From Deltaproteobacteria bacterium (GTDB taxonomy: Bacteria; Myxococcota_A; UBA9042; PHBI01), in assembly GCA_020632715.1 (NCBI GenBank), contig JACKFA010000007.1, positions 14,462 to 78,461 of the forward strand: a DNA stretch of 64,000 bases, written 5' to 3'. The position numbers were made by a program, and so were the translations under genes. Below the pieces are notes generated by a model. The model was not told where the DNA came from. It ran no database searches and saw nothing but the letters and a program-made list of their open reading frames with translations. Below, piece after piece: positions 10,113 through 49,702 of the stretch (positions within the stretch are counted from its first letter, which is position 1; each line of letters opens with the position of its first letter).

Positions 10113-10134
10113 TTCGGCGCGACCACTGCGGGCA

Positions 10135-10380: not shown

Positions 10381-10386
10381 GCTTCA

Positions 10387-10416
10387 CCGTAGGGGCGGCC
10401 CTCGTGGCCGCCCGCT
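10387..10416. repeat. Inverted copy of the REP-like hairpin element (CGTAGGGGCGGCCCTCGTGGCCGCC)
   Basis: Reverse complement of the motif at 9968..9995, and of the array at 45901..46230. Confidence 0.6.
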
Positions 10417-12447: not shown

Positions 12448-12604
12448 GGGCAGAGTCTCCGGGGGTGCCTGCGTGACGTTTTCCTTTCGAGGGTGTCGCC
12501 GCCGAGGGACGCGCGGCGCATGGAGCGTCTTACGCGCAAACGACCCGGAAGATTCTTCGCGAGGGCGGGTTTTACGCTCTCTTCACATGGAGCGAGGCGG
12601 TGCG

Positions 12605-12650
12605 GCGCCGGGCTCCGAAAAGACGAAGCGCCGACGGGCGCGAAGCCAGC
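12605..12650 (-). terminator. Hairpin (GAAGCGCCG...CGGCGCTTC) followed by GTCTTTTCGG on the minus strand, downstream of the small membrane protein gene
   Basis: Seen directly. The loop is long, so the call is weak. Confidence 0.3.
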
Positions 12651-25036: not shown

Positions 25037-25103
25037 GCGCCGACGCGCGGCCCCCAGCGACGTCGCGGTTGCCAAAAGCCCCCGTTCGCGCTTCCTTCCA
25101 GGC

Positions 25104-28449: not shown

Positions 28450-28537
28450 GAGGACGTCCAGGGGGCCTCCGGGCGCGGCGGCGGCGCGGGCGTTTGGTTT
28501 TGTCGCGCCGCGCGAAATGCTTCACTCTCCACGGCGC

Positions 28538-29569: not shown

Positions 29570-29601
29570 CGGGGGGAGACTCGCGGCGGAGGTGTTCCGA
29601 T

Positions 29602-31260: not shown

Positions 31261-31284
31261 GCGGGGGCGAGGTCTCCGGCGGGG

Positions 31285-32811
31285 TCAGGCCCCGCGGCCG
31301 CCGAGCACGACGCCGACGGTGCGGAGCAGCACGCGCGCGTCGAAGGTCAGCGAGGCGTGCTTGATGTAGTAGACGTCGTACTCGAGCTTGGCGATGGCGT
31401 CGTCGACGGACGAGCCGTAGGGGAAGCAGACCTGCGCCCAGCCGGTGACGCCCGGCTTCACGAGGTGGCGGAGGTCGTAGTAGGGGATGAGCTGCTCGAG
31501 CTCGGCGGTGAACTCGGGGCGCTCGGGGCGGGGCCCGACGAGGGACATCTGCCCGACGAGGACGTTCCAGAGCTGCGGGAGCTCGTCGAGGCGGGTGCGG
31601 CGCATGAAGCGGCCGAGCGGGGTCACGCGGGGGTCGTTGGCGCTCGCCCAGCGCGCGGCGCCGTCGGACTCGGCGTCGGCGCGCATGGTGCGGAGCTTCA
31701 GGAGGGTGAAGGGGCGCTTCCAGCGGCCGACGCGGACCTGGCGGTAGAGCACGGGGCCGCGGCTCGTGGTCTTGACGAGGACGGCGAGGACGAGGAGCAC
31801 GGGGGCGGCGAGGAGGAGGCCGACGAGGGCGCCGCCGATGTCGATGGCGCGCTTGGCGCTGGCGTACCAGAGGGAGGCGCCGCCGTGGAGCTGCTCGTCG
31901 TGGAGGAACCAGCCGTGGTCGTCGGCGGAGAGGGGGATGCGCTCCTGGACGTCCTCGATGAGCTGGCTCGGGGTGAGGACGGGGACGTTCTTGATCCGGT
32001 AGTGGATGAGGTCGGCGAGGGTCTCGCGGGGGAGGGCGTCGGCGGGGGTGGCGAGGACGACGGCGCGGACGGCCCCCTGCATCTGGGCGTCGAGGGCGGA
32101 CAGCGGGAGGGGGCCGCCGGCGCCGGCGGTGGGGGCCGGGGTGTCGGCGGCGAGGGCGGGGTCGAACCAGACGACGCCGTGTTGTTGGCCGCCGGTGGCG
32201 AGGCGCTCGGCGAGGGCGGCGGCGGCGGGTTGGCTGCCGATGACGAGGACGCGGGCGCGGGCCTCGGCGCGGCGGAGGGCCCAGGCGAGGGCGGCGCGGG
32301 AGAGGACGACCCAGAGGGCGAGGAGGAGGGCGAGGCCGACCATGCCTTGGGAGGCGGGGGGAGAGAGGGCGCGGATGGCGGCCTTCTTGGAGAGGTACTT
32401 GAGGATGATCCAGGCGACGGCGAGGCCGCCGGCGGTGCCGAGGGCGGTGACGCGGGAGACGCGGCCGCGCTCGGCGCGGTAGCCGCCGGCGAGGAAGGTG
32501 CCGAGGAGGGCGCCGGCGACGAGGAGCCAGCTGACGGGGCCGGAGCTCGGGACGTCCCAGGCGAGGAAGGGGAGGCCGATGACGTAGAGCCAGGCGACGA
32601 GGGCGTCGGCGAGCAAGAGGGCGAGGGCGACGCTGCGGCGCGAGCGGGCGCCCCGGTTCGGCACGACGACCTTGCGAGCGGCGCGCTCGAGCTCGATACG
32701 CCGGTCGGTGCGCGCGCGGTCGGAGACGAGGGCGGCGCGGCCGACCGGCGCGTGAGGCGCGGTCCGTGGTGACTCCTGTGACGTGGCGACCAGCCCTCCG
32801 TCGAGCGGCAC
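31285..32811 (-). CDS. WbaP/ExoY-type polyprenyl-phosphate hexose-1-phosphate transferase (initiating phosphoglycosyltransferase)
   Basis: C-terminal bacterial sugar transferase domain (..[15 protein letters not shown].., ..LLKLRTMR.., ..[22 protein letters not shown]..). The start is uncertain. The GTG at 32811 is chosen because the 5' 88 codons of the tracked ORF run through palindromic repeats. Confidence 0.65.
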
Positions 32812-32902
32812 GCGGCCGAGGATGACGGAGCCGAGGCCGCCTGGCAATGAGCGCGACAGGACCGGCCCGTTGTCGAACCCAGAACGTGAACGCCGTTCAC
32901 GC

Positions 32903-32978
32903 GACAGTCCCCGGGGACTGTCATGTAAAGCAACGTAATCGACCCCGACCGGGGGACGGCGACAGTCCCCGGGGACTG
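32903..32978. promoter_or_regulatory. Two copies of the palindrome GACAGTCCCCGGGGACTGT(C), spaced 58 bp apart within a 54-bp direct repeat, upstream of the sugar-transferase gene
   Basis: Sites at 32903..32922 (perfect 20-bp palindrome) and 32961..32978. Each is followed by ATGTAAAGCAA(C/T)GTAA. Confidence 0.45.
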
Positions 32979-33080
32979 CGATGTAAAGCAATGTAAGCGA
33001 AGCGACTCGGGGGCGACCGCCCGGAGCCGGAGAAGACCAGGAAACCAGGCACGCGAGGCCAAACGCAAGGAGCACCCCGG

Positions 33081-34940: not shown

Positions 34941-34986
34941 TCTCCACGGCGCCTGCTGCGGCTGCTTTTCCTCGGGGAGGTCTCCG

Positions 34987-35164
34987 GACAGTCCCCGGGG
35001 ACTGTTGGTCTGGGGTGACCGGGGACTTCGTGTCGGCCGTGGCCCATCCGCACCCGTGGGGAACAGTCCCCGGGGACTGTTGGTCTGGGGTGACCGGGGA
35101 CTTCGTGCCGGCCGTGGCCCATCTCAGTCCGCACGCGAGGGGGGCGACAGTCCCCGGGGACTGT
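34987..35164. promoter_or_regulatory. Three further copies of the ACAGTCCCCGGGGACTGT palindrome; the first two sit in a 66-bp tandem repeat
   Basis: Sites at 34987..35005, 35063..35080 and 35146..35164. The last lies 60 bp upstream of the AI-2E transporter ATG. Confidence 0.45.
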
Positions 35165-35224
35165 TCGCCCGGGGGGGCTTCGTGCCCAATTGTGGGCGGG
35201 GGATTCCTCGGGCATGGTCTCTTC

Positions 35225-36301
35225 ATGGTTGAGCCCGAGAAACCGCGTACGCCGACGCAGACCTACTTCCTCGGCTTCATCGCCTTCGTGGTGCTCGCGG
35301 CCGTCCTGTATTACGCGCGGCCGGTGGTGCTGCCCGTCGTGGTGGCCTTGTTCCTCGCCGTGCTCGTGCGGCCGCTGCATCGGCGCCTGAAGCGCGTGGT
35401 GCCGAGCTCCGTCAGCCTGGCCCTCGTCAGCCTCGCCGTGGGGCTCTTGCTCGTCGCCATCCCGGCCGCCTTCGCCGCCAACATCGACGCCATCCTCGCC
35501 AAGCTCCCCGACTACGCCCCTCGCATCCACGCCATCGTCGAGGACGTCCACGACTTCGCCCTCCGCCTCGGCGTCGACATCGCCCAGCTCGACCTCGACC
35601 CCGTCGCCTCCCTCAAGGACTTCGGCCTCGACGCGCTCACGAGCGGCGTCACCTTCTTCGGCAACGTCGTCCTCATCCTCTTCACCATGCTCTTCATCCT
35701 CTCCGAGGCCGAGATCTTCCGCGACAAGCTCGCCGTCGCCTTCAACCCCTCCAACGAGGCGCGCCTCATCGCCTCCGTCGTCTCCGTCCGCGCCCTCATC
35801 ACGCAGTACGTCGCCACGAAGACCCTCATCGCCTTCCTCTCCGGGCTCGCCGCCGGCGCCGTCACGCTCGCCCTCGGCGTGGACTTCCCCTTCGTCTGGG
35901 GCGTCCTCACCTTCATGCTCTACTACATCCCCAACGTCGGCTCGATGCTGGCCGTGATCCCGCCCTTCCTGCTCGCGATCATCCAGTTCGACGGCCCGAC
36001 CCGCGCGCTCGTGCTCCTCGCCGTCCTCATCGTCGTCTTCAACCTCGTCGGCAACGTGCTCGAGCCGCGCCTCATGGGGCGCACCCTCTCCCTCTCGCCC
36101 CTCATCGTCTTCGTGTCCCTCATCTTCTGGGGCTGGTTCTGGGGCTTCGTCGGCGTCGTCCTCGCCGTCCCCCTCACCGTCGTCACGAAGATCCTCTGCG
36201 AGCACATCGAGGTGCTCCGCCCCGTCGCCGTGCTCATGAGCAACAGCGTCGACGACCACCGCGGCGGACCACCCCCGCCGGCCGCCCCGCCGCGCCGCTG
36301 A
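35225..36301 (+). CDS. AI-2E family (PerM/UPF0118) transporter
   Basis: Eight TM helices with the family's characteristic C-terminal ..FWGWFWGFVGVVLAVPLT.. region. The upstream 209 codons of the tracked ORF are rejected. Confidence 0.75.
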   Translation: MVEPEKPRTPTQTYFLGFIAFVVLAAVLYYARPVVLPVVVALFLAVLVRPLHRRLKRVVPSSVSLALVSLAVGLLLVAIPAAFAANIDAILAKLPDYAPRIHAIVEDVHDFALRLGVDIAQLDLDPVASLKDFGLDALTSGVTFFGNVVLILFTMLFILSEAEIFRDKLAVAFNPSNEARLIASVVSVRALITQYVATKTLIAFLSGLAAGAVTLALGVDFPFVWGVLTFMLYYIPNVGSMLAVIPPFLLAIIQFDGPTRALVLLAVLIVVFNLVGNVLEPRLMGRTLSLSPLIVFVSLIFWGWFWGFVGVVLAVPLTVVTKILCEHIEVLRPVAVLMSNSVDDHRGGPPPPAAPPRR

Positions 36302-36323
36302 CGTCCGCGCCGCCTCTCGCCCG

Positions 36324-36824
36324 TCAGTTGTCGGGCGCCCCGGCCGTGATCCACTCGCGCAGCTTCGCGATGCCGCAGTTCACGCTGATCGGCTCCTCGG
36401 CGCCGTTCGGCATGAGCACGCCCTCGTCCGTCTCCATCGTGTCGGAGACCTTCTGCACCATGAAGCTCGCGTCCGGGTCGTTCGGCACCACGAGCAGCTT
36501 CCCGCGCGCCGACGCCTTCTCGTCTTCCGCCAGCACGTTCACGAGCCGCCCGTGGAGCCCCGCCACCGTCTCGAGGTCGAGGTCCGTGTCGCTCGAGCCC
36601 TTCTCGTGGCACGCCGAGAACACGCACGACCGCGCGAAGTAGTTCTCCTGCAGCGACGAGAGCGTCGCCTCCGTCTTGCAGACGGGCGTCGTCTCCCCAG
36701 GCGCCGAGTCGCACGCCGCCGCCCCGAGCGACCCCATCATCACGAGCCCGACCAGCACCGCCGAGAATCCCCTCACGTCCCGCTCCTCTCCGGAATCGTT
36801 CGCCTTCCTCACCGCGCCGCGCAT
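36324..36824 (-). CDS. Lipoprotein with a PSCyt1-like (planctomycete cytochrome c-like) domain in which CxxCH is replaced by C-x4-CH
   Basis: ..GLVMMGSLGAAAC lipobox. ..ENYFARSCVFSACHEKG...LVVPNDPDASFMVQKV...LMP...IAKLREWITAGA.. parallels the PSCyt1 consensus. Heme binding is doubtful. Confidence 0.45.
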   Translation of the reverse strand: MRGAVRKANDSGEERDVRGFSAVLVGLVMMGSLGAAACDSAPGETTPVCKTEATLSSLQENYFARSCVFSACHEKGSSDTDLDLETVAGLHGRLVNVLAEDEKASARGKLLVVPNDPDASFMVQKVSDTMETDEGVLMPNGAEEPISVNCGIAKLREWITAGAPDN

Positions 36825-36977
36825 CCCGCATCGCAACAAGGGCTCAGCGCCGCACCGTATCGGCCCGCGCGCCTCGACTCAATCTGAAATCTTCGCACTT
36901 GCACAATGCCCCGGCCGCCGCGCGCGCCGACCGACGCGTGACGGCGCGCCGAGGGTCGGCGCCCCCGAGCCCGCTCT

Positions 36978-38204
36978 TCAGAGGAACTGGTTCAGGTAGT
37001 CGCACACCCAGTGGCCCGGGCAGCACACCTGGTCGCCCGCGACGCCGTTGCCGATGTTCCCCGGGCTCACGCAGAGCCGGTAGCCCTGCGACGGGTAGTA
37101 GTAGGCCCAGAAGAAGCACATCTCGGCGTTCGCGCTCTCACCGAAGCGCACCGTGTGGTTCGACGTGTTCTCCCACGTGCACCGGTAGCGGAAGCCCTGC
37201 CCCTCGCTGAACGTGAGCGGCGGGTCGTAGGTCGACACGGGCGGCTCCTCCCAGTCGAACTTCACGCCCTCGTCGGGGTAGACGGAGGTGCCCTCGTCCT
37301 CGGCGTCGGTCGCGTAGGAGACCTCGACGTTCTTGCCGTACGCGTGCTCGTGGCCCGTCAGGGCGAAGACCTTGCTCCCGGCCGGCACGTCGAGGAAGCG
37401 CCACGGCGTCGTGAGCGTCTGCCCGGCCGGGATCTCGAAGTCGGGGTTGCCGTAGAAGAGGAGGTTCGCCTCGTCGGTCACGCGGTCGGCGGCGATGGCG
37501 TCGAAGTGGATGTCGCCGTGGGCCGTGATGCTCTCGGGGAAGTAGTTCAGGTAGTGCGCCTCGATGCGGATCATCTGGTGCGGCGCGAACTTGAAGGCGA
37601 CCCCCGGCGGGAACGTGAGCGTCTCCTCGCGGATCTGCGTGATCATGAGCGGGTACGTCGTGCCCTTCAGCGTCGAGACGAACGGGTCGCAGTTGAACGG
37701 CGTCGTCCGCTCCTCGGTCTCGTCCGACACGTAGATGATCATGTGGTGCGAGCCCTTGGCGAGCTCGGTGCGGATCTGCGAGACCCAGAGGTCGTCCTCG
37801 TTGTCGAGGCGGCGCACCACGCACTTCGTGACCTCGCGCCCCGGGTCCATCTGCCAGTCGCCGATGAACGTCGACGAGGTGCCCACGATCGGCGGCGGCT
37901 CGAGCGGCGTCGTGTCGACCGGCGTCGCCGTGTCCTCGGGCGTCGTCGTGGTCGCGTCCTCCGGGCTCGTCGTGGTCGCGTCCTCCGGCGGGGCCGTGGT
38001 CGTCGCGTCCTCGGGGGCCGTCGTCGTGCCGGTGGCGTCGTCCCCCGGGGTCGTCGTCGTCGCGACGTCGTCGCCGGTCGCGTCGTCGCCGCCGACCGCG
38101 TCGACCGCGCCGGTCGCGCCGTCTTGGGTGCCGCTCCCGCCGCTGTCGCAAGCGCCGAAGGAGACCAGGGACAAGACCATGAGCGGGGCCAGAACACGTG
38201 TCAT
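36978..38204 (-). CDS. Secreted lipoprotein with a PHM/DBH-like copper type II ascorbate-dependent monooxygenase fold
   Basis: Lipobox ..LVSFGAC and a T/D/P-rich linker. ..KGSHHMIIYVSDE.. gives the CuH HHM motif. ..LTGHEHAYGKN.. (HxH) and ..NAEMCFFWAYYYP.. give the CuM site with its Met. Confidence 0.55.
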   Translation of the reverse strand: MTRVLAPLMVLSLVSFGACDSGGSGTQDGATGAVDAVGGDDATGDDVATTTTPGDDATGTTTAPEDATTTAPPEDATTTSPEDATTTTPEDTATPVDTTPLEPPPIVGTSSTFIGDWQMDPGREVTKCVVRRLDNEDDLWVSQIRTELAKGSHHMIIYVSDETEERTTPFNCDPFVSTLKGTTYPLMITQIREETLTFPPGVAFKFAPHQMIRIEAHYLNYFPESITAHGDIHFDAIAADRVTDEANLLFYGNPDFEIPAGQTLTTPWRFLDVPAGSKVFALTGHEHAYGKNVEVSYATDAEDEGTSVYPDEGVKFDWEEPPVSTYDPPLTFSEGQGFRYRCTWENTSNHTVRFGESANAEMCFFWAYYYPSQGYRLCVSPGNIGNGVAGDQVCCPGHWVCDYLNQFL

Positions 38205-38331
38205 GGCCGGCACTTTGGCATAGGCCAAACCCCCGCTTCAAGCGCCAAAGCGGCGCCAGCGGTTCTCGCTTCGAAACTCCGGACGAGGCATAGTAGCGCG
38301 GCCCCTGCCCCGCCGAAGGAGTCCGTGCCCG

Positions 38332-41300
38332 ATGTGTCGCCGCGCTCGCCTGGCCGTCTTCGCGCCCCTCGCCCTGCTCTCGCTCCTGCTCGTCCCGGCC
38401 TGCGCCGACGACGCCACCACCGGCGGCGTGGACGTCGCCGACGGGATCCTCGAGCCCGACACCCTCGTCGTCGACACGAGCGTCCCCGCGGACACGATCG
38501 TCGTCATCGACACGAGCGCCGACACCGCGGGGCCGGTCGACACGGGCGGCGGGAGCGACGTCGAGGGCGGCTTCGGCGCGCCCTGCCAGGGCAACGTCGA
38601 CTGCCTCGACGGCTTCTGCGTCGAGGGGGAGGAGGGCTTCTTCTGCACGAAGATCTGCGAGGAGAGCTGCCCCGACGGCATGGACTGCAAGTCGGTCCTC
38701 ACGGCGGGCGCCGACCCGGTCTTCCTGTGCCTGCCGCGCCTCGCGAAGGTGTGCGTGCCCTGCAAGAGCGACTTCCAGTGCACGGGCGGCGCGTGCCTCG
38801 AGATCGACGGCGCGGGGCAGTGCGCGATCAGCTGCGAGGGCGCCGGCGACTGCCCGACCGGCTACGACTGCGCCGCCGACCCGGCGGGCGTCCGGAGCGG
38901 CGACTTCTGCCAGCCGCGCTCCGGGAGCTGCGACTGCACGCCGGAGCTCGACGGCGCGCAGCGCACGTGCGTCGTAGCGAACGACGTCGGCACCTGCTAC
39001 GGCGTCGAGACGTGCGACGCCGAGACGGGCTGGGGCGGCTGCAACGCGCGCACGCCGGCCGAGGACCTGTGCGACGGGCTCGACAACGACTGCAACGGCC
39101 TCGTCGACGACGGCGTCGAGGACGGCGGCGCCTGCAACAAGACGATCGCGGGCGTCGGCACCTGTCACGGCGTCGAGGTCTGCCTCGGGCCGCAGGGGCT
39201 CGTCTGCAGCGCGCCGACCCCGGAGGCGGAGACCTGCGACTTCAAGGACAACGACTGCGATGGCGGCGTCGACGAGGACTTCAAGGACGCCTCGGGCGAG
39301 TGGACGACGACCGCCAACTGCGGCACGTGCGGCAACGACTGCAGCACCAAGATCCCGCACGGCGTGGGCCGCTGCGAGGCCGTCGGGCAGGGGTCGCCGG
39401 TGTGCGTGGTCGACCACTGCGACGCCGACTACGTCGCCATCAACCAGTTCCAGTGCTCGCTCCCGCCCGACGTCTCGTGCCAGCCGTGCGCCGGCGACGA
39501 CGACTGCTTCGGCGGCTCCTGCGTGGACCTCGACGGGCAGCGCGTGTGCGTCTCGCCGTGCGGCGGGGCGGCGCGCTCCTGCGGCGACGGCTACGCGTGT
39601 CAGGCGGTCGGGAGCGGCGGGGAGCGCTGCCTGCCGGTGACGGGCTCGTGCGTGTGCAACGCGACGACGGACGGGCAGGCGCGGGCGTGCGTGCGGACGA
39701 ACGCGGCGGGGACGTGCTTCGGGCAGGAGGTCTGCGACGCGATGTCCGGCTGGAGCGGGTGCAACGCGCGGGAGCCGGCGGCCGAGGTGTGCGACGGGGT
39801 CGACAACGACTGCAACGGCGTCGCGGACGACGGCGTCGTGCCGCCGACGGAGCCGTGCGAGAACGCGGTCGCGGGCGTCGGGACCTGCACGGGGACGTGG
39901 TTCTGCGCGAGCAATGGCGCGGGCGGGGTGGCCTGGACCTGCAACGCGGCGACGCCGGAGCCCGAGGTGTGCGACTTCCGCGACAACGACTGCGACGGGC
40001 AGGTCGACGAGGGCTACAAGGACCAGGCGACGGGCGTCTACGGCGCCGACGACGCCTGCGGCTCGTGCGGGGTCTCGTGCGACACGGCCGTGCCGCACGC
40101 GAGCGCGGGGTGCCTCGTGGGCGCGGGCGTCGCGCGCTGCGAGGTGCTCGAGTGCGACCCGGGCTACTACCAGGCGGGGCCGCTCACGTGCCTGCCGGTG
40201 ACGGAGGACCTGTGCACGCCGTGCGCGACGGACGCGCAGTGCCCGACGCCGGGGGACCGCTGCCTCGACCTCGACGGCGGGCGCTTCTGCGGGCGCGACT
40301 GCGGCGCGACGAACCTGCACGGGACGGCGGCGGGCGTGTGCCCGAGCGGGTTCGCGTGCCAGGCCGTCCTCGGCGGGGCGGACCAGTGCGTGCCGGCGAC
40401 GGGGAGCTGCAGCTGCCTCGCGGGGGACGTGGGGGAGCAGCGGACGTGCATCCGGTCGAATGCGCTCGGGACGTGCTACGGGCAGGAGACGTGCGCGGCG
40501 GGCGGGTGGTCGAGCTGCACCGTGACGGCGCCGGTCGCGGAGGTGTGCAACGGCAGGGACGACGACTGCAACAGCGCGATCGACGACGTGGCCGGCCGCG
40601 GGCAGGCGTGCAGCATCACGAACGCGAACGGGACGTGCCCGGGGGTGAAGGACTGCCCGGCGAGCGGGGCGGCGCTCGTGTGCGTCGGGAAGACGCCGGC
40701 CGCGGAGAGCTGCAACTACGCGGACGACGACTGCAACGGCGTCGCCGACGACCCGTGGGCGGCGACGCTGTTCCAGTCGTGCTCGAAGGGGCAGGGGGTG
40801 TGTCAGCGGTTCGGCTTCATGGCGTGCAAGGCCGACGGGAGCGGCGTCGAGTGCAACGCGCAGCCGGGGCCGCAGGGGGAGGAGATCTGCGACGGCCTCG
40901 ACAACGACTGCGACGGGGAGACCGACGAGGGCCCGTGGGATGAGAAGGGGCAGCCGTGCACGGCGGGGCTCGGCGTGTGCCAGGTGACGGGCGTCAAGGT
41001 GTGCAGCCCCGACGGGGCGACGCTCGTGTGCTCGGCGACGCCGCCGGCGCCTGGCACGAGCGACCCGTGCGATGGGCTCGACAACGACTGCAACGGCGTC
41101 GTCGACGACGCGTTCGCCGCGCAGAAGGGGGCGGTCTGCTCGAACGGGCAGGGCGTGTGCAAGGCGTTCGGCAACCTCGTGTGCGGGAACGGGGGCGCGA
41201 GCTTGGTCTGCAACGCCACGGAGGGCACGGGGACGCCCGAGGTGTGCGATCTCGTCGACAACGACTGCGACGGCGCGACGGACAACGGCTTCCAGGTCGG

Positions 41301-43137
41301 CGGGCGCTACGTGAGCCCGACGGCGTGCGGCAACTGCTTCACGAACTGCGAGGCGATCTTCGGCGTCGGCGGCGGCTACGGGACGTGCAACACGACGCCG
41401 CCGCTGCCGGTGTGCGCGCTGAAGTGCTGCCGCGCGGGGGACACGAGCCATGGGTGCGACGGCGGCAACTACTTCGACCTGAACGGCGTGCCGGGCGACG
41501 GGTGCGAGTTCGTGGTCGACACGACGGCGGTCTACGTGGCGACGACGGACTCGGGGGCGGTCGACGACGGGACGTGCGGGCTCGCGCCGACGGTGACGGG
41601 GCTCGGGCACCCGTGCAAGAGCATCACGAAGGGGATCGCGCGGGCGGCGGCGCTGTCGCGGGGGAAGGTGCTGGTCGCGAGCGGGCAGTACACGGAGACG
41701 GTGACGGTGGTGGACGGCGTGTCGCTCTACGGCGGCTACAGCGCGCAGACGTGGCAGCGGGCGACGGACCTGTTCCTGACGGCGGTGACGGGGAACACGG
41801 CGAGCGGGCACCGCGTGACGCTCAACGCGACCGACATCACGACGAAGAACACGGTGGTCGACGGCTTCACGATCTACGGGCAGACGGCCACGGGCGTGGC
41901 CGAGAACAGCTACGCGGTGCTCGCGCGGCGCTCGAACCAGCGGCTCACGCTCACGCACAACGTGGTGTGGGCGGGGGCGGGCGGCCCGGGCGACAGCGGG
42001 ACGCGCGGCGGGGACGGCACGAACGGCGGCGGCGGCGGCGCGGGGCACGTGGCGTTCGAGGCGGTCGGCTCGGGCTCCCCGTACTACTGCTGGCGGACGT
42101 GCAACGCGGCCGGCGCCTCGAACGCGGGCGGCAACGGCGGCACGAACGGCTCGTGCAGCGCCGCGAACGGCGGCAAGGGCGGGACGGGCGACTGCCCGGA
42201 CTACAACAACAGCGTCGACACCTGCATCAACTGGACGTTGACGTCCTTGCAGACGCAGACCACCAAGGGCGTCAACGGGCAGGGCGCGAGCCCGGGCGCG
42301 GGCGGTGTGGGCGGCTGTGATAGCCTCATCGACCCCTACGCCCTCGACGGCACGTGCGACTGCAAGCCGGCGGAGTTCGACGCGGCGCAGTGCCCGAACG
42401 GCACGTTCTCGGCGGCGGGCACCGACGGCGGCAAGGGCTCGTCGGGCTCGGCGGGGACGCGCTGCAGCACGCCGGCGGGGCAGCTCGTGAGCGGGCACTG
42501 GCAGGGCAACGCGGGGAGCGTCGGCGGGGCGGGCGGCGCGGGCTCGGGCGGCGGTGGCGGTGGTGCCGGCGGCGGCGTCGAGCAGTACAACGACGGCTCG
42601 TGCACGACGGGCGGGTCGGACTTCGGCGGCTCGGGCGGCGGCGGCGGGGCCGGCGGGTGCGGTGGCGGCGGCGGGACGGCCGGGAAGGCCGGCGGCGGGG
42701 CGTTCGGGATCTTCGTGGTGTTCGAGACGAACCCGGGGACGGCGGTACCGGCGATCCGCGACAACACGATCCACACGGGCTACGGCGGCGTCGGCGGGCG
42801 CGGCGGCGAGGCCGGGACGCCGGGGACGGGCGGCTCGGGCGGCGGCGGCGGCGGCGGCGGCGTGTCGGGGACGAACTACTGGTGCGCGAGCCCGGGGTCG
42901 AAGGGCGGCGAGGGCGGCGACGGCGGCCCGGGCGGCGGCGGCGGCGGCGGGTGTGGCGGCGCGAGCTACGGCGTGTGGGTCGGCGGCCCGTACACGGCGT
43001 CGAACCTGAGCGGCTGGACGAACGCGGTGACGCTCGACGGCGCGGGTGGCGCGGGCGGCCCCGGCGGGCAGACGACGGCGGGCGGCAACAAGGGCCAGGA
43101 CGGCCTCGCGGGGACGCACGCGCTGAAGAACTACTGA
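38332..43137 (+). CDS. Giant lipoprotein (1601 aa) with at least nine MopE-type putative metal-binding C-DG-x-DNDC-DG-x-DE repeats, a central beta-helix-like region and a Gly-rich C-terminus
   Basis: MCRRARLAVFAPLALLSLLLVPAC lipobox. Repeats such as LCDGLDNDCNGLVDDG, ICDGLDNDCDGETDEG and VCDLVDNDCDGATDNG. The antisense and other-frame ORFs across this span are rejected. Confidence 0.8.
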   Translation: MCRRARLAVFAPLALLSLLLVPACADDATTGGVDVADGILEPDTLVVDTSVPADTIVVIDTSADTAGPVDTGGGSDVEGGFGAPCQGNVDCLDGFCVEGEEGFFCTKICEESCPDGMDCKSVLTAGADPVFLCLPRLAKVCVPCKSDFQCTGGACLEIDGAGQCAISCEGAGDCPTGYDCAADPAGVRSGDFCQPRSGSCDCTPELDGAQRTCVVANDVGTCYGVETCDAETGWGGCNARTPAEDLCDGLDNDCNGLVDDGVEDGGACNKTIAGVGTCHGVEVCLGPQGLVCSAPTPEAETCDFKDNDCDGGVDEDFKDASGEWTTTANCGTCGNDCSTKIPHGVGRCEAVGQGSPVCVVDHCDADYVAINQFQCSLPPDVSCQPCAGDDDCFGGSCVDLDGQRVCVSPCGGAARSCGDGYACQAVGSGGERCLPVTGSCVCNATTDGQARACVRTNAAGTCFGQEVCDAMSGWSGCNAREPAAEVCDGVDNDCNGVADDGVVPPTEPCENAVAGVGTCTGTWFCASNGAGGVAWTCNAATPEPEVCDFRDNDCDGQVDEGYKDQATGVYGADDACGSCGVSCDTAVPHASAGCLVGAGVARCEVLECDPGYYQAGPLTCLPVTEDLCTPCATDAQCPTPGDRCLDLDGGRFCGRDCGATNLHGTAAGVCPSGFACQAVLGGADQCVPATGSCSCLAGDVGEQRTCIRSNALGTCYGQETCAAGGWSSCTVTAPVAEVCNGRDDDCNSAIDDVAGRGQACSITNANGTCPGVKDCPASGAALVCVGKTPAAESCNYADDDCNGVADDPWAATLFQSCSKGQGVCQRFGFMACKADGSGVECNAQPGPQGEEICDGLDNDCDGETDEGPWDEKGQPCTAGLGVCQVTGVKVCSPDGATLVCSATPPAPGTSDPCDGLDNDCNGVVDDAFAAQKGAVCSNGQGVCKAFGNLVCGNGGASLVCNATEGTGTPEVCDLVDNDCDGATDNGFQVGGRYVSPTACGNCFTNCEAIFGVGGGYGTCNTTPPLPVCALKCCRAGDTSHGCDGGNYFDLNGVPGDGCEFVVDTTAVYVATTDSGAVDDGTCGLAPTVTGLGHPCKSITKGIARAAALSRGKVLVASGQYTETVTVVDGVSLYGGYSAQTWQRATDLFLTAVTGNTASGHRVTLNATDITTKNTVVDGFTIYGQTATGVAENSYAVLARRSNQRLTLTHNVVWAGAGGPGDSGTRGGDGTNGGGGGAGHVAFEAVGSGSPYYCWRTCNAAGASNAGGNGGTNGSCSAANGGKGGTGDCPDYNNSVDTCINWTLTSLQTQTTKGVNGQGASPGAGGVGGCDSLIDPYALDGTCDCKPAEFDAAQCPNGTFSAAGTDGGKGSSGSAGTRCSTPAGQLVSGHWQGNAGSVGGAGGAGSGGGGGGAGGGVEQYNDGSCTTGGSDFGGSGGGGGAGGCGGGGGTAGKAGGGAFGIFVVFETNPGTAVPAIRDNTIHTGYGGVGGRGGEAGTPGTGGSGGGGGGGGVSGTNYWCASPGSKGGEGGDGGPGGGGGGGCGGASYGVWVGGPYTASNLSGWTNAVTLDGAGGAGGPGGQTTAGGNKGQDGLAGTHALKNY

Positions 43138-43167
43138 GCGGGGGATTGGTATCTAAGTCTCTGTGGT

Positions 43168-43400
43168 GGATAGGTTTTCAACCACGGAGCACGGAGGCAC
43201 GGAGGGTCCGGTGGAGCGACCGGGTCCCTGCCGCGGTCGCACGGCCGGTCCAGTGGGAGACGGTGGGGAGGAAGGGAGGACGATTGCCTCCTCCCCTCCT
43301 CCCCGCCCCGAGCACCACGGAGCGCGAGCCGGAGGCATAAGTCTCCGAATCCACTGGACCCTCCGTGCCTCCGTGCCTCCGTGGTTTCCCTCCACGGACT
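43168..43400. repeat. Second copy of the (CACGGAG)n hairpin element (TTTTCAACCACGGAGCACGGAGGCACGGAGGG ... CCCTCCGTGCCTCCGTGCCTCCGTGGTTTCC)
   Basis: Inverted arms about 170 bp apart. Related to 21140..21545. Confidence 0.45.
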
Positions 43401-43558
43401 TCGCCACGACCCCACAGCGTGTCCTCCGGCCGCGCGGCCACGATGCCGCACGACCCCGGATCGGCACCGCCTCCCGGAATTCGCCCCCGCCCACCTCGTC
43501 GCGATCCACCCGCCCGTGATAATCGTAGAGCACTCACACACGGAGAGAGGAGCTCGCG

Positions 43559-44872
43559 ATGACCACGGACGCGCTGCCGCTGCCGCCCGGATCGGGTGGT
43601 ATGCCCTTGCTCGGTGAGACCCTGCCCATGCTGAAGGACGGCTACGCCTTCGTGCGTGAGCGCGTCGAGCGGCACGGGCCCGTCTTCCGCACGAACGTCC
43701 TCTTCAAGAAGACCGCCGTGCTGGTGGGGCCCGACGCGCTCGGCGCCTTCCTCGACCCGGCGAACGTGACGCGCGTCGGGGGTCTGCCGCCGCACATCGC
43801 CGACCTCTTCGGCAAGGGCGCGATCAACCAGATCGACGGCCCGGTGCACACCGCGCGGAAGACCATCATCCTCGCCGCGCTCGACCGCGCCGCGCTCGAG
43901 TCCTACACGGCGGACGTCGTCGCCATCACGCGCGACCACCTCACGCGCTGGCGCGCGCGCGGCGAGGAGCGCGTCGCCGACGCCGGGAAGCGCCTCGCCA
44001 TCGCGCTCGTCGGCAAGAACATCTTCGATCTCGCCGAGGGGCCCGATCTCGACGCCCTCTACGACGACGTCCAGCTCATCGGCGGCGGCTTCTCGGGGCT
44101 CCCGGTGAACCTCCCGGGCACGGCGTTCAACAAGGCGCTCAAGGCGAAGAAGCGCCTCTTCGCGCGCTACGCGGCCATCGTCGCCGACCACCGCGCGCGG
44201 CCGCGCGAGGACGGGCTCTCGCGCATGCTCGCCGCCGAGGTCGACGGCACGCGCCTCGACGACGAGGCCGTCGTGCGCGAGCTCCACCACCTCCTCCTCG
44301 CCGGCTACATCGTGTGGGGGATGTTCATCGCGGGCCTCCTGCGCCTCGGCGCGGAGCCCGCCCTGGCCGACGCGCTCCGCGCCGAGGTCGGCGCCCTCCC
44401 GGAGGCCCCCGACGCGAGGGCCCTCCTCCACCTCCCAGGGCTCGCCGCGTTCGCGCAGGAGGTGAAGCGGACGACCCCGATGATCCCCATCTTCTTCGGG
44501 GTCGCCGCGCGCGACTTCGAGGTCGCGGGGCACCGGGTCCCGGCTGGTTGGCGCGTGCTCTGGGCGATCCACGCGAGCAACAACAGCGGCGTCTCCGCGT
44601 TCTCCGACCCCTCCCGCTTCGATCCGGCGCGCTTCGGCGAGGCGCGCCGCGAGGACGCCCGCCACCCGCACGCGCTGTCGCCGCAGGGGTCGGGGCCGCC
44701 GACCGGCCACCGGTGCGCAGGCGTGGAGTACTCGACCCTGCTCCTGCACGCGTTCTTCGCCGAGCTCCTGCGCGTCGGGCGCTTCACCGTGCCGGAGCAG
44801 GATCTGCGCACCAACGCCGCCACGATCCCGCCCGAGTACCCGGGCGGGGTGCGCGTGCGCTTCGAAGGGTGA
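43559..44872 (+). CDS. Cytochrome P450
   Basis: Heme-thiolate loop ..FSDPSRFDPARF...LSPQGSGPPTGHRCAGVEY.. and an I-helix ..LLAGYIVWGMF.. The RBS GAGAGAGGAG is directly upstream. Confidence 0.85.
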   Translation: MTTDALPLPPGSGGMPLLGETLPMLKDGYAFVRERVERHGPVFRTNVLFKKTAVLVGPDALGAFLDPANVTRVGGLPPHIADLFGKGAINQIDGPVHTARKTIILAALDRAALESYTADVVAITRDHLTRWRARGEERVADAGKRLAIALVGKNIFDLAEGPDLDALYDDVQLIGGGFSGLPVNLPGTAFNKALKAKKRLFARYAAIVADHRARPREDGLSRMLAAEVDGTRLDDEAVVRELHHLLLAGYIVWGMFIAGLLRLGAEPALADALRAEVGALPEAPDARALLHLPGLAAFAQEVKRTTPMIPIFFGVAARDFEVAGHRVPAGWRVLWAIHASNNSGVSAFSDPSRFDPARFGEARREDARHPHALSPQGSGPPTGHRCAGVEYSTLLLHAFFAELLRVGRFTVPEQDLRTNAATIPPEYPGGVRVRFEG

Positions 44873-44881
44873 CCTCGGGCG

Positions 44882-44910
44882 TGGGGCGGGGAGGGGCGTT
44901 CCGCCCCACC
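44882..44910 (+). terminator. Hairpin GTGGGGCGG-N11-CCGCCCCAC, 10 nt after the P450 stop
   Basis: Seen directly. No T-tract. Confidence 0.3.
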
Positions 44911-44965
44911 TCCTGGCACGGTGCGCTGGTCAAGAGGCGCCTCTCGGCCTTATGCTGGGCGTTGC

Positions 44966-45889
44966 ATGACGACGACGACCCTCCCGTGCTCCCAGGCCTC
45001 CCTCGACGTCGGCGAGCCGATCTACGCGACCGCGGCGGAGAAGACGGACGTCTGGCTCCTCCTCGAGCATGACGGGCAGTGGGCGCCGAAGGTGCTCGAG
45101 AGCCCCGGCCTCGCGCCGCGCACGCGCGCCTGGCTCGAGGAGTTCCTCGCCGACAACCCGACGGCGCGCGTGCAGCTCATCCGGAGAGGGCCGTCGCCGA
45201 ATCGGGATGACAAGCAGCGCTTCTTCTTCGCCACGACGGGCGAGGACAACGCGGCGATGTGGTCTTTCGGGTACACGGACCCCGCCGAGCTCGAGAAGAT
45301 CGACCTCTACGCCCTCCTCGAGAGCCCGCGGGCGCTGCCGGAGAGCCGGCGCTTCCGGCCGCTGTTCCTCGTCTGCACGCATGGTAAGCGCGACGCCTGC
45401 TGCGCGCGGCTCGGGCCGGCGATCTACCAGGCGCTCCAGCCGGAGTGGGAGGACGAGGTCTGGCAGACCTCGCACATCGGCGGTCACCGCTTCGCGGCGA
45501 CGATGCTCTGCTTCCCGCACGGCCACTGCTTCGGGCGGCTCGACGCGGCGGTCGCGAGGCGCGTGGCGAGCGGGTACGCGGCGCGGCGGCTGACGGATCT
45601 GCTGCACTACCGCGGGCGGTCGACCTACGCGCGCCCCGTGCAGGCTGCGGAGTACTTCCTGCGGCAGGCGACGGGATCGTACGCGATCGACGCGCTGCAC
45701 TACTCGCGCGGCGAGCTGCTCGACCCGGACCGGTGGCGGATCTGCTTCTTCGACAAGGCGTCCGGCGAGACGCACGAGCTGACGATCGCGCGGGTCGTGG
45801 GCCCGGACCGGGCGCCGGCGAGCTGCGGCGAGGCGCCGAAGCCGGTCGACAGGCTCGTCCTCGAGAGCCACCGGCAGCTGACGTCGTAG
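44966..45889 (+). CDS. Sucrase/ferredoxin-like (thioredoxin-fold) family protein
   Basis: ..LFLVCTHGKRDACCARLGP.. and ..HIGGHRFAATMLCFPHGHCFG.. are typical of the Suc_Fer-like family. Start is at MTTTTL (44966). Confidence 0.65.
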   Translation: MTTTTLPCSQASLDVGEPIYATAAEKTDVWLLLEHDGQWAPKVLESPGLAPRTRAWLEEFLADNPTARVQLIRRGPSPNRDDKQRFFFATTGEDNAAMWSFGYTDPAELEKIDLYALLESPRALPESRRFRPLFLVCTHGKRDACCARLGPAIYQALQPEWEDEVWQTSHIGGHRFAATMLCFPHGHCFGRLDAAVARRVASGYAARRLTDLLHYRGRSTYARPVQAAEYFLRQATGSYAIDALHYSRGELLDPDRWRICFFDKASGETHELTIARVVGPDRAPASCGEAPKPVDRLVLESHRQLTS

Positions 45890-45900
45890 CGGGCTCGGTC

Positions 45901-46230
45901 GCGGGCGGCCACGAGGGCCGCCCCTACGGGGATCGGCCGGACGCGGGCGGCCACGAGGGCCGCCCCTACGGTGATGGGCTGGACGCGGGCGGCCACGAGG
46001 GCCGCCCCTACGGTGATGGGCTGGACGAGTGCCGCCCCTACGGTGGGGGCCGCGTGGCGCGGGCGGCCACGAGGGACGGCCGTAGGGTGGGGCTTCACGC
46101 GGGCGGCCACGAGGGCCGCCCCTACGGTGAGGCTTCACGCGGGCGGCCACGAGGGCCGGCCATACGGTGGGGGCTGGCGGCCACTAGCCAGGGGCGTGAG
46201 CATCGGTAGGGGCGGCCCTCGTGGCCGCCC
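45901..46230. repeat. REP-like array: about seven direct copies of a 43-bp unit (GCGGGCGGCCACGAGGGCCGCCCCTACGG + 13-14 nt), closed by one inverted copy
   Basis: The hairpin core GGCGGCC-ACGAG-GGCCGCC is self-complementary. The same unit is found at 9968, 10069 and 10387. Confidence 0.7.
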
Positions 46231-46365
46231 TCAGGCACCCCACCGTCGACGCCCGATCGCCTTGACGTAAGCCTCGGGAGCCCTGCGACTCCGGCCCCCC
46301 GAGTCGGCCGCTGCGCGGCCTTGGTCGGGGGCCTCCGTCTCCGGTCTCCCGAGGCCCGATCGCAG

Positions 46366-47325
46366 CTACTTCGCGGCCGCCTTCGCCTTCTTCGTGAGCT
46401 CGGCCGCCCGCTCCGGCGCCGCCTCGGCCGCCGCCGCGTAGAGCTTCGGGAGCGTCGTCTTCACGCTCACGAGCCCCACCTGGAGCTTCAGCGACTGGCC
46501 CTCCTGCGTGATCGCCCGCACCGCGAGCGCCTTCGCGCCCGGCGCCACCTGCGCCGGCTGCGCGAGGACCGTCAGCGGCTGATCCGTGTCGGCGCTCGCC
46601 TTGCCCGTCAGCGTCGCGATCGGCACCCGCGCCCGCGTCGTGACCTCCTCGAGGTAGTACTCCACGCCCACCACCGTGCCGCCCTCGACCTTCGCGGCCC
46701 AGGTCACCACGACGTCGTCCCACGGCCACGCCGCGGAGGCGTCGGTCACGCCGAGCTTCTTCACGGTCTTCGCCACCGTCTTGTCAGACAGGATGCTCAT
46801 CGGCAGATCGGGGTTCTGGTCGTCCATCCCGCCCGCCGCCGTCACCGTCGCGCCCGGCTTCCCCGTCGGCACCGCGAGCGGCGTGCACGCGCCCTCACCC
46901 GCGCACAGGAAGTAGGTGCGCCCGTCCTTCGAGAAACCGCCGGCGATGGCCCACGTCGCGTGCGACACACCCGCCCAGCCGTCGATCTCCGCGCACGGCG
47001 CCGGCCACGTCGCGAGCGCGCCGTCCTCGCCGGCGGGCGCCGGACCCTCGCCCCGCGGGGCGTCCTCCCCAGCGACCAGCACCTGATCGCAGCCCTCGTA
47101 CCCCATCGCCTCGAGCGGGCGCTTCGGCGGCTCCGGCGCCGGCGGCTCGGGCTCCGGCGCGACGACCGGCGGCGGATCCGCGGGCTTCTCCTGCTCGCGG
47201 ATGGTGGTACAGGCGCTCGCCCCGAGAAGGGACGGGAGGGCGAGGGAGGCGAGCCAGACACGACGAGACCGAAGGGACAGCTTCACGCGCAGCTCCGAAG
47301 GCGAAGGATGGCGCACGCCGGTCAT
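46366..47325 (-). CDS. Lipoprotein with a Pro/Glu-rich linker, function unknown
   Basis: ..LASLALPSLLGASAC lipobox. High GC3. The GTG at 47286 is an alternative start. Confidence 0.5.
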   Translation of the reverse strand: MTGVRHPSPSELRVKLSLRSRRVWLASLALPSLLGASACTTIREQEKPADPPPVVAPEPEPPAPEPPKRPLEAMGYEGCDQVLVAGEDAPRGEGPAPAGEDGALATWPAPCAEIDGWAGVSHATWAIAGGFSKDGRTYFLCAGEGACTPLAVPTGKPGATVTAAGGMDDQNPDLPMSILSDKTVAKTVKKLGVTDASAAWPWDDVVVTWAAKVEGGTVVGVEYYLEEVTTRARVPIATLTGKASADTDQPLTVLAQPAQVAPGAKALAVRAITQEGQSLKLQVGLVSVKTTLPKLYAAAAEAAPERAAELTKKAKAAAK

Positions 47326-47476: not shown

Positions 47477-49381
47477 TCAGGCGGTGGTCGCCTCGCGCTC
47501 TCGCGGCATCGCCCGCGCGATGATCTCCGCCATCGTCGCGAGCCGGTACGGCTTGTGGAGGAGCCCCTGCGCGCCCGCGTCCATGAGCCCGCGCACGGCC
47601 TCGTCGTTGCCGAAGCCCGTGCAGAGCACGACGCGCACGTCCCGATCGAGCTCCCTCAGCGCGTGGAAGCAGCTCTCGCCGTCCATCTCGGGCATCACGA
47701 GGTCGAGGAGCACCAGATCGAACGGCGGGTGCGCGTGCTCGAACACCGCGATCGCCTGGATCCCGTCGTTCGCGGTGACCGCGGTGTAGCCGAGGCTCTC
47801 GAGCATCCGCGCCGCCACGCGCCGCGCGACCTCCTCGTCGTCGACGACCAGGATCCGCCCCCCCGACGCCGGCGTCGCGGCGCGCGTGAGCGCCGCCCGC
47901 GGCACCTCGTCGCACGCCGGCAGCAGCACCGAGAAGGTCGTCCCCTTCCCGCGCTCCGTCTCCACCGTGATGGCGCCGCCGTGGTTCCGCACGATGCCGT
48001 ACGCCATCGCGAGCCCCATCCCGGTGCCGCGCGTGCCCTCGCGCGTGGTCACGAACGGCTCGAACAGCTTGTCGCGCACCTCGTCCGGGATTCCGACCCC
48101 CTCGTCGATAACGTCGACGAGGACGTGCTCGGCGCCCGGGACGCCGTCCGCGGCGACGTGACGCACGCGGAAGGTGAGCGTCCCACCGTCGGGCATCGCG
48201 TCGCGCGCGTTCAGCGCCATGTTGAAGAACACGAGCTGGAGCTGGTTCGGATCGCCCATGACGACGGGCGTCTTCTCGGCGCGCTCGTGCACGACGCGGA
48301 GCCGCTTGTCGAGGCTGTGCTGGAGCAGCTCGATCAGCTCGTCGACGAGGTCGTCGAGCTGGACCGGGCGCGTCTCGTACTTGCCCTGGCGCGCGAAGCC
48401 GAGCAGCTGCCGCGTGAGGTTCCCCGCCTGCTGCGCGGTCTCGATGATCGTCTGCGTCAGGCTCTTGGCCTCGTCCGGGAGGCGCGCGTCGAGCAGCAGC
48501 AGCTCCGCCGAGCCGAGGATCCCGACGAGGAGGTTGTTGAAGTCGTGCGCGACCCCGCCCGCGACGCGGCCTATCGCCTGCATCTTGCGCGCCTGGAACG
48601 CCTTCTCGTCGACCCGCTTCCGGTCGGTGATGTCGACGAACGTGACGAGCGCCCCGAGGAACTCGCCCGTCAGCGGCCCGCGCACCGGGACCGCGGTGAA
48701 GATGGCCCACGCCATGGTGCCGTCCGGTCGGCGGACGCCGATCGTCAGCGGCGGCTGCGGGCGCTGCGTCCCGAGGCAGCGCGCGACGGGGTAGTCTTCC
48801 ACGGGGCAGGGCTCGCCGTTCTCGTAGAACGTGGCGGGAGCGAAGTCCTCGATGTAGCGCCGCGTGAGGACGTCGTAGCTGAGCCCGAGGAGCTCGCGCG
48901 CGACCGTGTTCGCGACGCGCACGGCGCCCGCGGTGTCGACGAAGACGACGCCGCCAGGGACGTTGTCGATGATGGTGCGCTTGAGCTGGCTGTCCGCGTC
49001 GAGCTGGTGCTCGGCGAGGTCGGGCACGTCGATGGGCGTGAGGAAGCCGGTGACGACGGCCTGGCCGTCGGCAGAGGGCACCACGCGCCCCTGGTCGGTG
49101 ACCCAGCGCACGTCGCCGTCGTGCCCGATCCACCGGTACTGCAGCGCGAAGCGATCGCGATCCGGTCCGAGCGATGACAGCCGCTCGAGCACCAGCGGGC
49201 GGTCGTCGTGGTGGATGTACGACGCGAACGACGCGCGCGGGCCGTCGGGCTCGAGGCCGAGGCGGCCGACGTCGCCCACGAGCGCGTCGAAGGCCGCGTC
49301 GAAGGAGGCTGGCCGACGGTACACGAGCCCGGGCAGTCCAACAGAATCCGGCGCGGCGGCTGGCGTGTCCCACAGGCCCAT
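47477..49381 (-). CDS. Hybrid sensor histidine kinase/response regulator (PAS-PAS-HisKA-HATPase_c-REC)
   Basis: H-box ..VAHDFNNLLVGILGSAELL.. ATPase N, G1 and G2 boxes (..FFNMALNARDAM.., ..DEGVGIP.., ..GTGMGLAM..). Receiver ..ILVVDDEEV...LVLLDLVMPEMDG... The alternative start at 49435 adds 18 aa. Confidence 0.8.
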   Translation of the reverse strand: MGLWDTPAAAPDSVGLPGLVYRRPASFDAAFDALVGDVGRLGLEPDGPRASFASYIHHDDRPLVLERLSSLGPDRDRFALQYRWIGHDGDVRWVTDQGRVVPSADGQAVVTGFLTPIDVPDLAEHQLDADSQLKRTIIDNVPGGVVFVDTAGAVRVANTVARELLGLSYDVLTRRYIEDFAPATFYENGEPCPVEDYPVARCLGTQRPQPPLTIGVRRPDGTMAWAIFTAVPVRGPLTGEFLGALVTFVDITDRKRVDEKAFQARKMQAIGRVAGGVAHDFNNLLVGILGSAELLLLDARLPDEAKSLTQTIIETAQQAGNLTRQLLGFARQGKYETRPVQLDDLVDELIELLQHSLDKRLRVVHERAEKTPVVMGDPNQLQLVFFNMALNARDAMPDGGTLTFRVRHVAADGVPGAEHVLVDVIDEGVGIPDEVRDKLFEPFVTTREGTRGTGMGLAMAYGIVRNHGGAITVETERGKGTTFSVLLPACDEVPRAALTRAATPASGGRILVVDDEEVARRVAARMLESLGYTAVTANDGIQAIAVFEHAHPPFDLVLLDLVMPEMDGESCFHALRELDRDVRVVLCTGFGNDEAVRGLMDAGAQGLLHKPYRLATMAEIIARAMPREREATTA

Positions 49382-49702
49382 ACAGTTTTTTTTGTAACAG
49401 ACGTCCGACGCGGAGTCACGCGCCCGTCGTGCCATCGTGAACGGGACCCCGCCGCGAACGGGGCGGATCTCCGGCGCTGTGTGAAATGACCCAGCGGCGA
49501 GCGCAAACCGTGAACGGAGTTCACGTCAGCCGCCAGGAGCGCGCCTGCGCGTCGTCTGCGCGTCACCGCGCCCGCCGAGGCCGCGGCACGGGGTGAGCAC
49601 GCTTTGAGCAGTCATCCGTCGACCGTGGCGGCGGGCGCCGTGGTTCACTCCAGCGTGGCGCCGCGCTCGCCCGCGCCGGCGCACGTCGCGCAGGGAGACA
49701 CC

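Follow-up and report, generated by a model that had tools for sequence, protein, structure and literature searches.

The 64,000-nucleotide stretch of DNA analyzed here (hereafter the window), from a Deltaproteobacteria bacterium (contig JACKFA010000007.1), encodes two neighboring lipoproteins on its minus strand: a 416-amino-acid (aa) protein with the fold and copper ligands of PHM and DBH (36978-38228), and a 171-aa cytochrome-like protein (36324-36839). In our view the functional unit is probably a two-gene envelope module in which the cytochrome reduces the copper enzyme in place of ascorbate. The PHM-like protein and its C-x4-CH cytochrome are well supported as a module and, so far as the open-access literature shows, undescribed. 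A sequence-only reading had grouped these two genes with the three that follow them, encoding a MopE-motif protein, a cytochrome P450 and a Suc_Fer-like protein, and had proposed an exported copper-handling or oxidative tailoring system. All five genes are present as described and, apart from that of the cytochrome, their Pfam labels hold. An exported, oxidative system remains a good description of the PHM-like protein and the cytochrome, but not of the five-gene neighborhood as a whole.

The PHM/DBH-type copper lipoprotein

The product of 36978-38228 begins, like that of the cytochrome gene, with a signal peptide and a lipobox Cys (here Cys27), followed by a Thr/Asp/Pro-rich linker up to about residue 110 and then a two-domain core. 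The Pfam model Cu2_monoox_C matches this core at E 2.4e-12 (47 bits, cut-off 23). The corresponding Pfam model of the N-terminal domain gave no match, and a profile of the family spans PHM residues 27-289, i.e., both domains. In the PDB, this profile finds human DBH (4zel, 2.9e-5) and rat PHM (about 6e-5), each matched along the entire core. An AlphaFold2 model has a mean predicted local distance difference test score (pLDDT) of 80.8, most 10-residue blocks of the core exceeding 90, and the best 31 Foldseek matches of this model in the PDB are all DBH or PHM, with E-values down to 1.9e-14 and a probability of 1.00. Against PHM itself (the PAM core; PDB 1PHM, 1OPM, and 1SDW), the two-domain beta-sandwich is recovered at E about 1e-14 with a target-normalized template modeling (TM) score of 0.6-0.66, at a sequence identity of only about 16%.

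The two copper sites can be read from conserved residues. The protein carries the motifs SHHM, EAHY, GHEHAYG, and AEMC, and we assign H161, H162, and H225 as putative ligands of the first site (CuH) and H293, H295, and M370 as those of the second (CuM). All six residues are invariant in an alignment of 30 family members, as are C136, C180, C350, and C371. In the profile alignment, the six ligands fall on PHM H107, H108, H172, H242, H244, and M314, and the disulfides C136-C180 and C350-C371 on PHM C81-C126 and C293-C315. Taken together, profile, modeled fold, and ligands place the protein in the PHM/DBH superfamily, as the sequence-only reading had suggested, and predict copper binding and hydroxylation by an enzyme that, like PHM, would be exported through the secretory pathway.

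What is the likely substrate of this enzyme? In PHM, residues R240, N316, and Y318 presumably anchor the carboxylate and backbone of the peptidyl-glycine substrate, judging from the 1OPM complex. The equivalent positions here are T291, F372, and W374, all invariant in the family. With Thr, Phe, and Trp in place of the residues that anchor the carboxylate, a glycine-extended peptide is probably not the substrate, and by its sequence the protein would not be classed as a PHM in the strict sense (EC 1.14.17.3). PHM further differs in having the lyase PAL as a partner, and no PAL gene adjoins the module. One protein with NHL repeats (15380-16672), the only such protein of the window, was considered as a candidate PAL and rejected; the best PDB matches of its beta-propeller are bacterial teneurin-like proteins (2.3e-39).

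The group formed by DBH, tyramine beta-monooxygenase, and MOXD1 provides the closest solved relative by both profile and fold (4ZEL), with the same copper ligands. Unlike these proteins, the window enzyme lacks a DOMON or a dimerization domain, and its accessory element would be a cytochrome c, either separate or fused at the N-terminus. DBH-type proteins carry an N-terminal DOMON domain, and DOMON domains bind heme in some other proteins. This may be viewed as a loose precedent, by analogy, for a heme-bearing accessory partner.

The family is a large one. At least 533 relatives were found, all with PF03712 and none of them a named protein, and 220 loci occur in species-representative genomes, nearly all from Myxococcota and often with several paralogues per genome. 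To call PHM-like enzymes rare outside animals, as was done earlier, is thus too strong.

A C-x4-CH cytochrome adjacent or fused to the copper protein

The cytochrome open reading frame (ORF) encodes 171 aa, with the true start probably at Met6. Its heme motif reads SCVFSACH (C72-x4-C77-H78), M143-P144 contains the probable axial Met, and C54 and C155 probably form a disulfide. The lipobox Cys, the C-x4-CH motif, the M-P pair, and a C-terminal W-I-x-x-G-A helix are kept first in nine homologues from related loci and then in 36 diverse family members. Across these 36 sequences, the Cys, the Cys-His, and the Pro of M-P are invariant, and the Met nearly so (one Gln); two members have a canonical CXXCH in the same column, and one protein (P0124) has the spacing C-x5-CH. 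While the window protein scores 17.2 bits with the Pfam model PSCyt1, under the cut-off of 22, a relative (L010) reaches 27.3 bits and 20 of the 36 members match at E <= 0.01.

The sole solved homologue found with the family profile is the diheme cytochrome FoxE of Rhodobacter ferrooxidans (5mab, E 1.5e-6), whose CXXCH, MP, and WI..GA elements align with the motifs of the family. The window cytochrome differs from FoxE in having one domain rather than two, C-x4-CH rather than CXXCH, and a lipid anchor, and in being paired or fused with a copper monooxygenase-like protein, whereas FoxE acts in iron oxidation. An exhaustive profile search yielded 9883 family representatives at E <= 1e-3, many of which contain between two and five domains in tandem; a word-indexed homologue search with the cytochrome had returned only six proteins. 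At the homologous site, the top 150 representatives contain 194 C-x4-CH and 143 CXXCH motifs, sometimes both in one protein. C-x3-CH and C-x4-CH motifs bind heme in known multiheme cytochromes. Judged on these patterns, the 171-aa protein is a genuine member of a cytochrome c domain family that would bind heme, and C-x4-CH is a conserved variant of the attachment motif. The sequence-only reading had correctly recognized a PSCyt1-type domain, but its description of the domain as degenerate does not stand, since C-x4-CH is conserved over the family.

To place the pair in a wider context, 80 PHM-like loci from genomes and further ones from metagenome assemblies, 83 in all, were queried with the window proteins and with a hidden Markov model of the cytochrome. 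A cytochrome gene lies by the PHM-like gene in 12 of the 83 (11 distinct places). The two genes adjoin in L001, L002, L005, L007, L009, L010, L014, L023, L024, and L081/L082, with only 12 bp between them in L081, and lie about 2 kb apart in L083. In a neighbor-joining tree, the paired loci fall in the window's clade and one sister clade, L014 and L024 lying outside the former, and even the most divergent cytochrome homologue (35% identity, L168/L169) adjoins a PHM-like gene. Overall, 13 distinct related loci show the two genes side by side.

The order of the cytochrome gene followed by the PHM-like gene is kept between a flanking AI-2E transporter gene and the MopE-motif gene, while the strands vary among relatives. 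All four genes are co-oriented in L001, L002, and L081, the PHM-like gene alone is flipped in L005 and L007, and both the cytochrome and the PHM-like gene are flipped in the window. The pattern looks like the inversion of single genes in place; as to inverted repeats flanking the flipped genes, the window shows only GC-rich matches at chance level.

A second form of association is found in fusion proteins. P0255, a protein of 639 aa, combines a dockerin and a PHM-like core with two cytochrome domains that both carry C-x4-CH, in the order cytochrome-dockerin-cytochrome-PHM-like core. Together with 60 related clusters it defines a set of 61 fusion protein clusters, in which one or two cytochrome domains precede the PHM-like core and which, wherever a source is named, come from Planctomycetota in all but one case. 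CXXCH occurs in none of the 61, and C-x4-CH in all except one truncated cluster. In 26 aligned members, C-x4-CH, MP, HH, H, HxH, and M are all invariant, and the profile of the fusions matches FoxE (3.9e-9), dockerins, and DBH (5.3e-3) in the PDB. Two of the fusion genes from Planctomycetota (L084 and L085) share no neighbors and seem to stand alone. Adjacency kept in one phylum and fusion in another are a classic mark of functional partners, and the cytochrome and the PHM-like protein probably work together.

Electron supply, substrates, and competing explanations

In the model we favor, the lipid-anchored PHM/DBH-class enzyme would operate as a non-coupled two-copper monooxygenase, with CuH (three His) receiving electrons and CuM (two His and one Met) activating O2 and hydroxylating a C-H bond. 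The cytochrome, a lipid-anchored, monoheme c-type protein with probable His/Met ligation, would give CuH two electrons per turnover. In animals, ascorbate supplies the electrons for PHM and DBH and is regenerated via cytochrome b561. The window enzyme would differ from PHM in being a bacterial lipoprotein whose putative reductant is a cytochrome c rather than ascorbate; its adjacency and fusion to cytochrome c domains speak for such a different donor. Within its clade, the AI-2E transporter may belong to the module as a third member, and the large MopE-motif protein is possibly a neighbor by descent, a scaffold, or a substrate.

Several observations weigh against this model. About 70 of the 83 PHM-like loci have no adjacent cytochrome gene, including the whole Polyangiaceae/Kofleriaceae clade, and since most paralogues thus lack such a neighbor, as do those of the cultured Polyangium sp. 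6x1 and y55x31, the pairing is not obligatory for the PHM-like family. The flipping of strands among relatives, although gene order is kept, means that the pair is not always an operon. AlphaFold2 applied to the 171-aa cytochrome (six sequences) produced no confident fold (pLDDT 42). Finally, the homologue of known structure, FoxE, works as an Fe(II) oxidoreductase, and the cytochrome could therefore have another physiological partner.

An alternative view centers on the large, Cys-rich proteins encoded nearby. The gene at 38332-43137 (plus strand) diverges from the PHM-like gene over a gap of 103 bp and encodes a Cys-rich predicted lipoprotein of 1601 aa. Pfam Cu-binding_MopE (PF11617) matches it at E 1.5e-32 in seven stretches, in agreement with the MopE-type repeats noticed earlier; by eye, nine C-D-G-x-D-N-D-C-[DN]-G-x-x-D-[DE] repeats can be counted between residues ~240 and 1000. 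A C-terminal region of ~600 aa ends in a Gly-rich tail, and the last 621 aa have no Pfam match at E <= 1. Another Cys-rich predicted lipoprotein of the window, a protein of 1137 aa (49604-53017, plus strand), contains Dicty_CTDC-like repeats.

It is conceivable, if unlikely, that the PHM-like enzyme modifies such secreted repeat proteins, for instance by hydroxylating the Asp/Asn-rich loops of its 1601-aa neighbor. The calcium-binding EGF domains of animals are hydroxylated by an unrelated iron enzyme and offer a parallel for this proposal. Large Cys-rich ORFs occupy 14 of 144 slots adjacent to PHM-like genes and 20 of 553 non-adjacent ones, an enrichment (odds ratio 2.9, Fisher p 0.007) that is uncorrected for shared ancestry. 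At least three repeat types are involved (the MopE motif, Dicty_CTDC, and one other). In seven loci (L014, L017, L018, L019, L024, L036, and L042), a relative of the 1137-aa protein is encoded directly upstream of a PHM-like gene and on its strand, and two proteins from the L027 region (P0092 and P0094) carry about 12 Cys-rich CGDDGCGGSCG repeats fused directly to the N-terminal side of the PHM-like core. Against this, Cys-rich proteins are common in these genomes and the background rate is accordingly high, the enrichment is modest and comes from roughly four lineages, and repeats serving as a stalk that displays the enzyme explain the fusions equally well. The Cys-rich repeats near PHM-like genes could be substrates, scaffolds, or common surface-protein stalks.

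Do the MopE-type repeats handle copper, as had been suggested? The Cu(I) site of MopE lies in the C-terminal domain, which is secreted, and consists of His132, His203, and kynurenine-130 and not of an Asp/Cys repeat; calcium stabilizes the protein (PMC3423442). The solved MopE structures are not matched by the 1601-aa protein at E <= 1 or by a profile of the nine repeats at E <= 10. Because no match to the copper domain of MopE exists, the Pfam name Cu-binding_MopE is no evidence of copper handling, and the suggestion is not supported. What the protein has in common with MopE/CorA of methanotrophs (2VOV) is the short Asp/Cys motif of PF11617 only, besides both being surface-associated or secreted; it is five times larger, with nine repeats and an additional C-terminal region. 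The nearest, non-significant PDB matches of the repeat are D-x-D-x-D-G-type loops of subtilisins, and on composition, calcium binding would be a more natural guess than copper.

A further possibility concerns the role of the pair. Instead of a monooxygenase system, it might form an electron-transfer couple in which a FoxE-like cytochrome takes electrons from an external donor such as Fe(II) and the copper protein reduces O2 or relays them. The Fe(II)-oxidizing FoxE as the only solved homologue of the cytochrome would fit this idea, as would the location of both proteins in the envelope as lipoproteins, the loss of the PHM substrate residues, and the fact that no substrate pocket could be assigned. 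However, the full sets of CuH and CuM ligands show no variation in two phyla, and this includes the Met of CuM and the disulfide next to it. This full pattern is a requirement for O2 activation and C-H hydroxylation in PHM and DBH, and we know of no PHM-fold protein acting as a pure oxidase. We consider such a couple decidedly improbable.

Slighter still is the chance that the cytochrome-like protein has lost its heme and serves as a structural or copper-delivery partner, with C-x4-CH as a degenerate remnant. The sub-threshold PSCyt1 score of the window protein, the variable spacing in P0124, and the failure of structure prediction to give a confident fold could all be read in this way. They are outweighed, in our opinion, by the conservation of the Cys, Cys-His, Pro, and, nearly, Met positions in 36 diverse sequences as well as in the fusions, and by the alternation of C-x4-CH and CXXCH domains inside single multi-domain proteins.

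What would be the relevance of a copper monooxygenase fed by a cytochrome? PHM and DBH, through which animals produce peptide hormones and noradrenaline, are textbook copper enzymes. The passage of electrons over the ~11 Å between their copper sites, and the coupling of reduction to substrate binding, are debated. To our knowledge, all mechanistic work on these enzymes has so far used animal proteins with ascorbate. If our model is correct, a bacterial homologue with a protein donor would provide a genetically tractable system with a defined entry point for electrons, whose transfer could be triggered and timed. It would also mean that the PHM/DBH enzyme class has been wired to heme proteins independently, and it would encourage a search for new kinds of extracellular hydroxylation in predatory and in particle-associated bacteria. 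The broader proposal, that bacteria possess an undescribed class of PHM/DBH-type enzymes, fed by C-x4-CH cytochrome domains that are adjacent in Myxococcota and fused in Planctomycetota, and acting on a surface substrate other than peptidylglycine, has in our estimate an even chance of being right. Searches of the open-access literature and a 2025 review of PHM turned up neither bacterial homologues nor a cytochrome partner, which is weak negative evidence only.

Neighboring genes and other features of the window

The two genes that complete the group of five encode the P450 (437 aa, 43559-44872, plus strand) and the Suc_Fer-like protein (322 aa, 44921-45889, plus strand). The former matches Pfam p450 at E 1.5e-19 over residues 9-416 and has the Cys-ligand loop G-H-R-C-A-G near its C-terminus, with all NCBIfam equivalog matches far under their cut-offs. 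The latter, a thioredoxin-fold protein (Pfam E 1.5e-22), contains C152-x8-C161 and H185-x-G-G-H189, both conserved in L005. The same motifs, which we take to be the cluster ligands in Apd1 and Aim32, and the Pfam match link it to these [2Fe-2S] proteins, from which it differs in being bacterial and in having no conserved association with a P450 or the copper module. None of the 83 PHM-like loci and none of 80 Suc_Fer loci contains a P450 homologue, and a metagenome scan confirmed no close relative of the P450. Of the 83, a single locus (L005) has a Suc_Fer-like gene. The two genes were also considered as a conserved pair, an idea that was rejected when none of the 80 metagenome relatives of the Suc_Fer-like gene, including those of 68% and 60% identity, was found to adjoin a P450 gene. 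No signal peptide is visible by eye in either protein, and we regard both genes as unrelated bystanders outside the module.

Synteny had been named earlier as a check on the proposed neighborhood; it holds for the cytochrome, fails for the P450 and the Suc_Fer-like gene, and holds in part for the MopE-motif gene, whose orthologue adjoins the PHM-like gene only in close relatives, of which there are five (L001, L002, L004, L005, and L007), whereas L081 and L083 lack it at this place. That all five genes would constitute one copper-handling or oxidative system is barely credible and already largely refuted by synteny: contiguity within 9.5 kb, redox- or metal-flavored Pfam names, and the MopE-motif orthologues of these five relatives speak for it, but the distribution of the P450 and Suc_Fer-like genes, their products' apparent lack of export signals, the missing match to the copper domain of MopE, the absence of the MopE-motif gene from beside the module in L081 and L083, and the lack of copper-homeostasis genes among the window genes scanned all stand against it.

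In L081, a relative of 63% identity, the next gene after the PHM-like one is not the MopE-motif gene but a flavin-dependent halogenase-like gene (11339-12649; Trp_halogenase, E 4e-44). Another 5 kb on, there is a gene that exceeds 11,000 codons.

On the other side of the module, beyond the range covered by the sequence-only reading, the AI-2E transporter gene (~35220-36301, plus strand) matches Pfam AI-2E_transport at E 9.2e-50. Its ORF of 567 aa, starting at 34598, is over-extended: the first residue of the domain is number 225 of the ORF, and homologues have a length of about 360 aa. The gene adjoins the cytochrome gene not only in the window but also in L001, L002, L005, L007, L081, L083, L166, and L170, and in L083 it stays with the cytochrome gene even with the PHM-like gene displaced. 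It is missing from more distant cytochrome/PHM pairs, and the transporter may be a clade-specific third component. Inside the over-extended ORF and upstream of the likely start, the palindrome ACAGTCCCCGGGGACTGT is repeated in three to four copies (34985-35207).

Genes were called by a third-codon-position GC (guanine plus cytosine) content of 0.93-0.99 with GC1 > GC2, in a window whose GC content is 70-78%, and this measure selects the same reading frames as the sequence-only reading. The nearest relatives of the window proteins are all found in uncultured Myxococcota genomes. The PHM-like, MopE-motif, and Suc_Fer-like proteins have no NCBIfam model, searches of the window for Rfam families and tRNAs came back empty, and a promoter and terminator scan of 36200-38450 returned no sites, a result that is uninformative at such GC content.

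Downstream of the five genes, a 319-aa lipoprotein-like protein of no family (46366-47325, minus strand) and a hybrid histidine kinase (47477-49435, minus strand) precede the 1137-aa Cys-rich protein. A hairpin repeat resembling repetitive extragenic palindromes (REP), GCGGGCGGCCACGAGGGCCGCCCCTACGG, occurs in nine copies (<=3 mismatches; 0 expected by chance) and in both orientations, in two intergenic clusters at 9969-10415 and 45901-46232. The second cluster is a tandem array of ~7 copies with a period of 40-42 bp directly after the stop codon of the Suc_Fer-like gene.

Elsewhere in the window, a PglB/STT3-type oligosaccharyltransferase (24204-27335), GT4 and GT2 glycosyltransferases (27325-28449 and 28442-29569), and a Bac_transf sugar transferase (31285-33075) are encoded, and together these genes (24204-33075) resemble a myxobacterial locus for protein N-glycosylation. 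A VIT-VWA protein (702-3167) and a DUF5690 protein (4540-5994, 8.5e-144) are unrelated to the module. The gene at 7233-8657 encodes a VKOR-thioredoxin fusion, likely a disulfide-forming system, which is of relevance to a genome rich in exported Cys-rich proteins.

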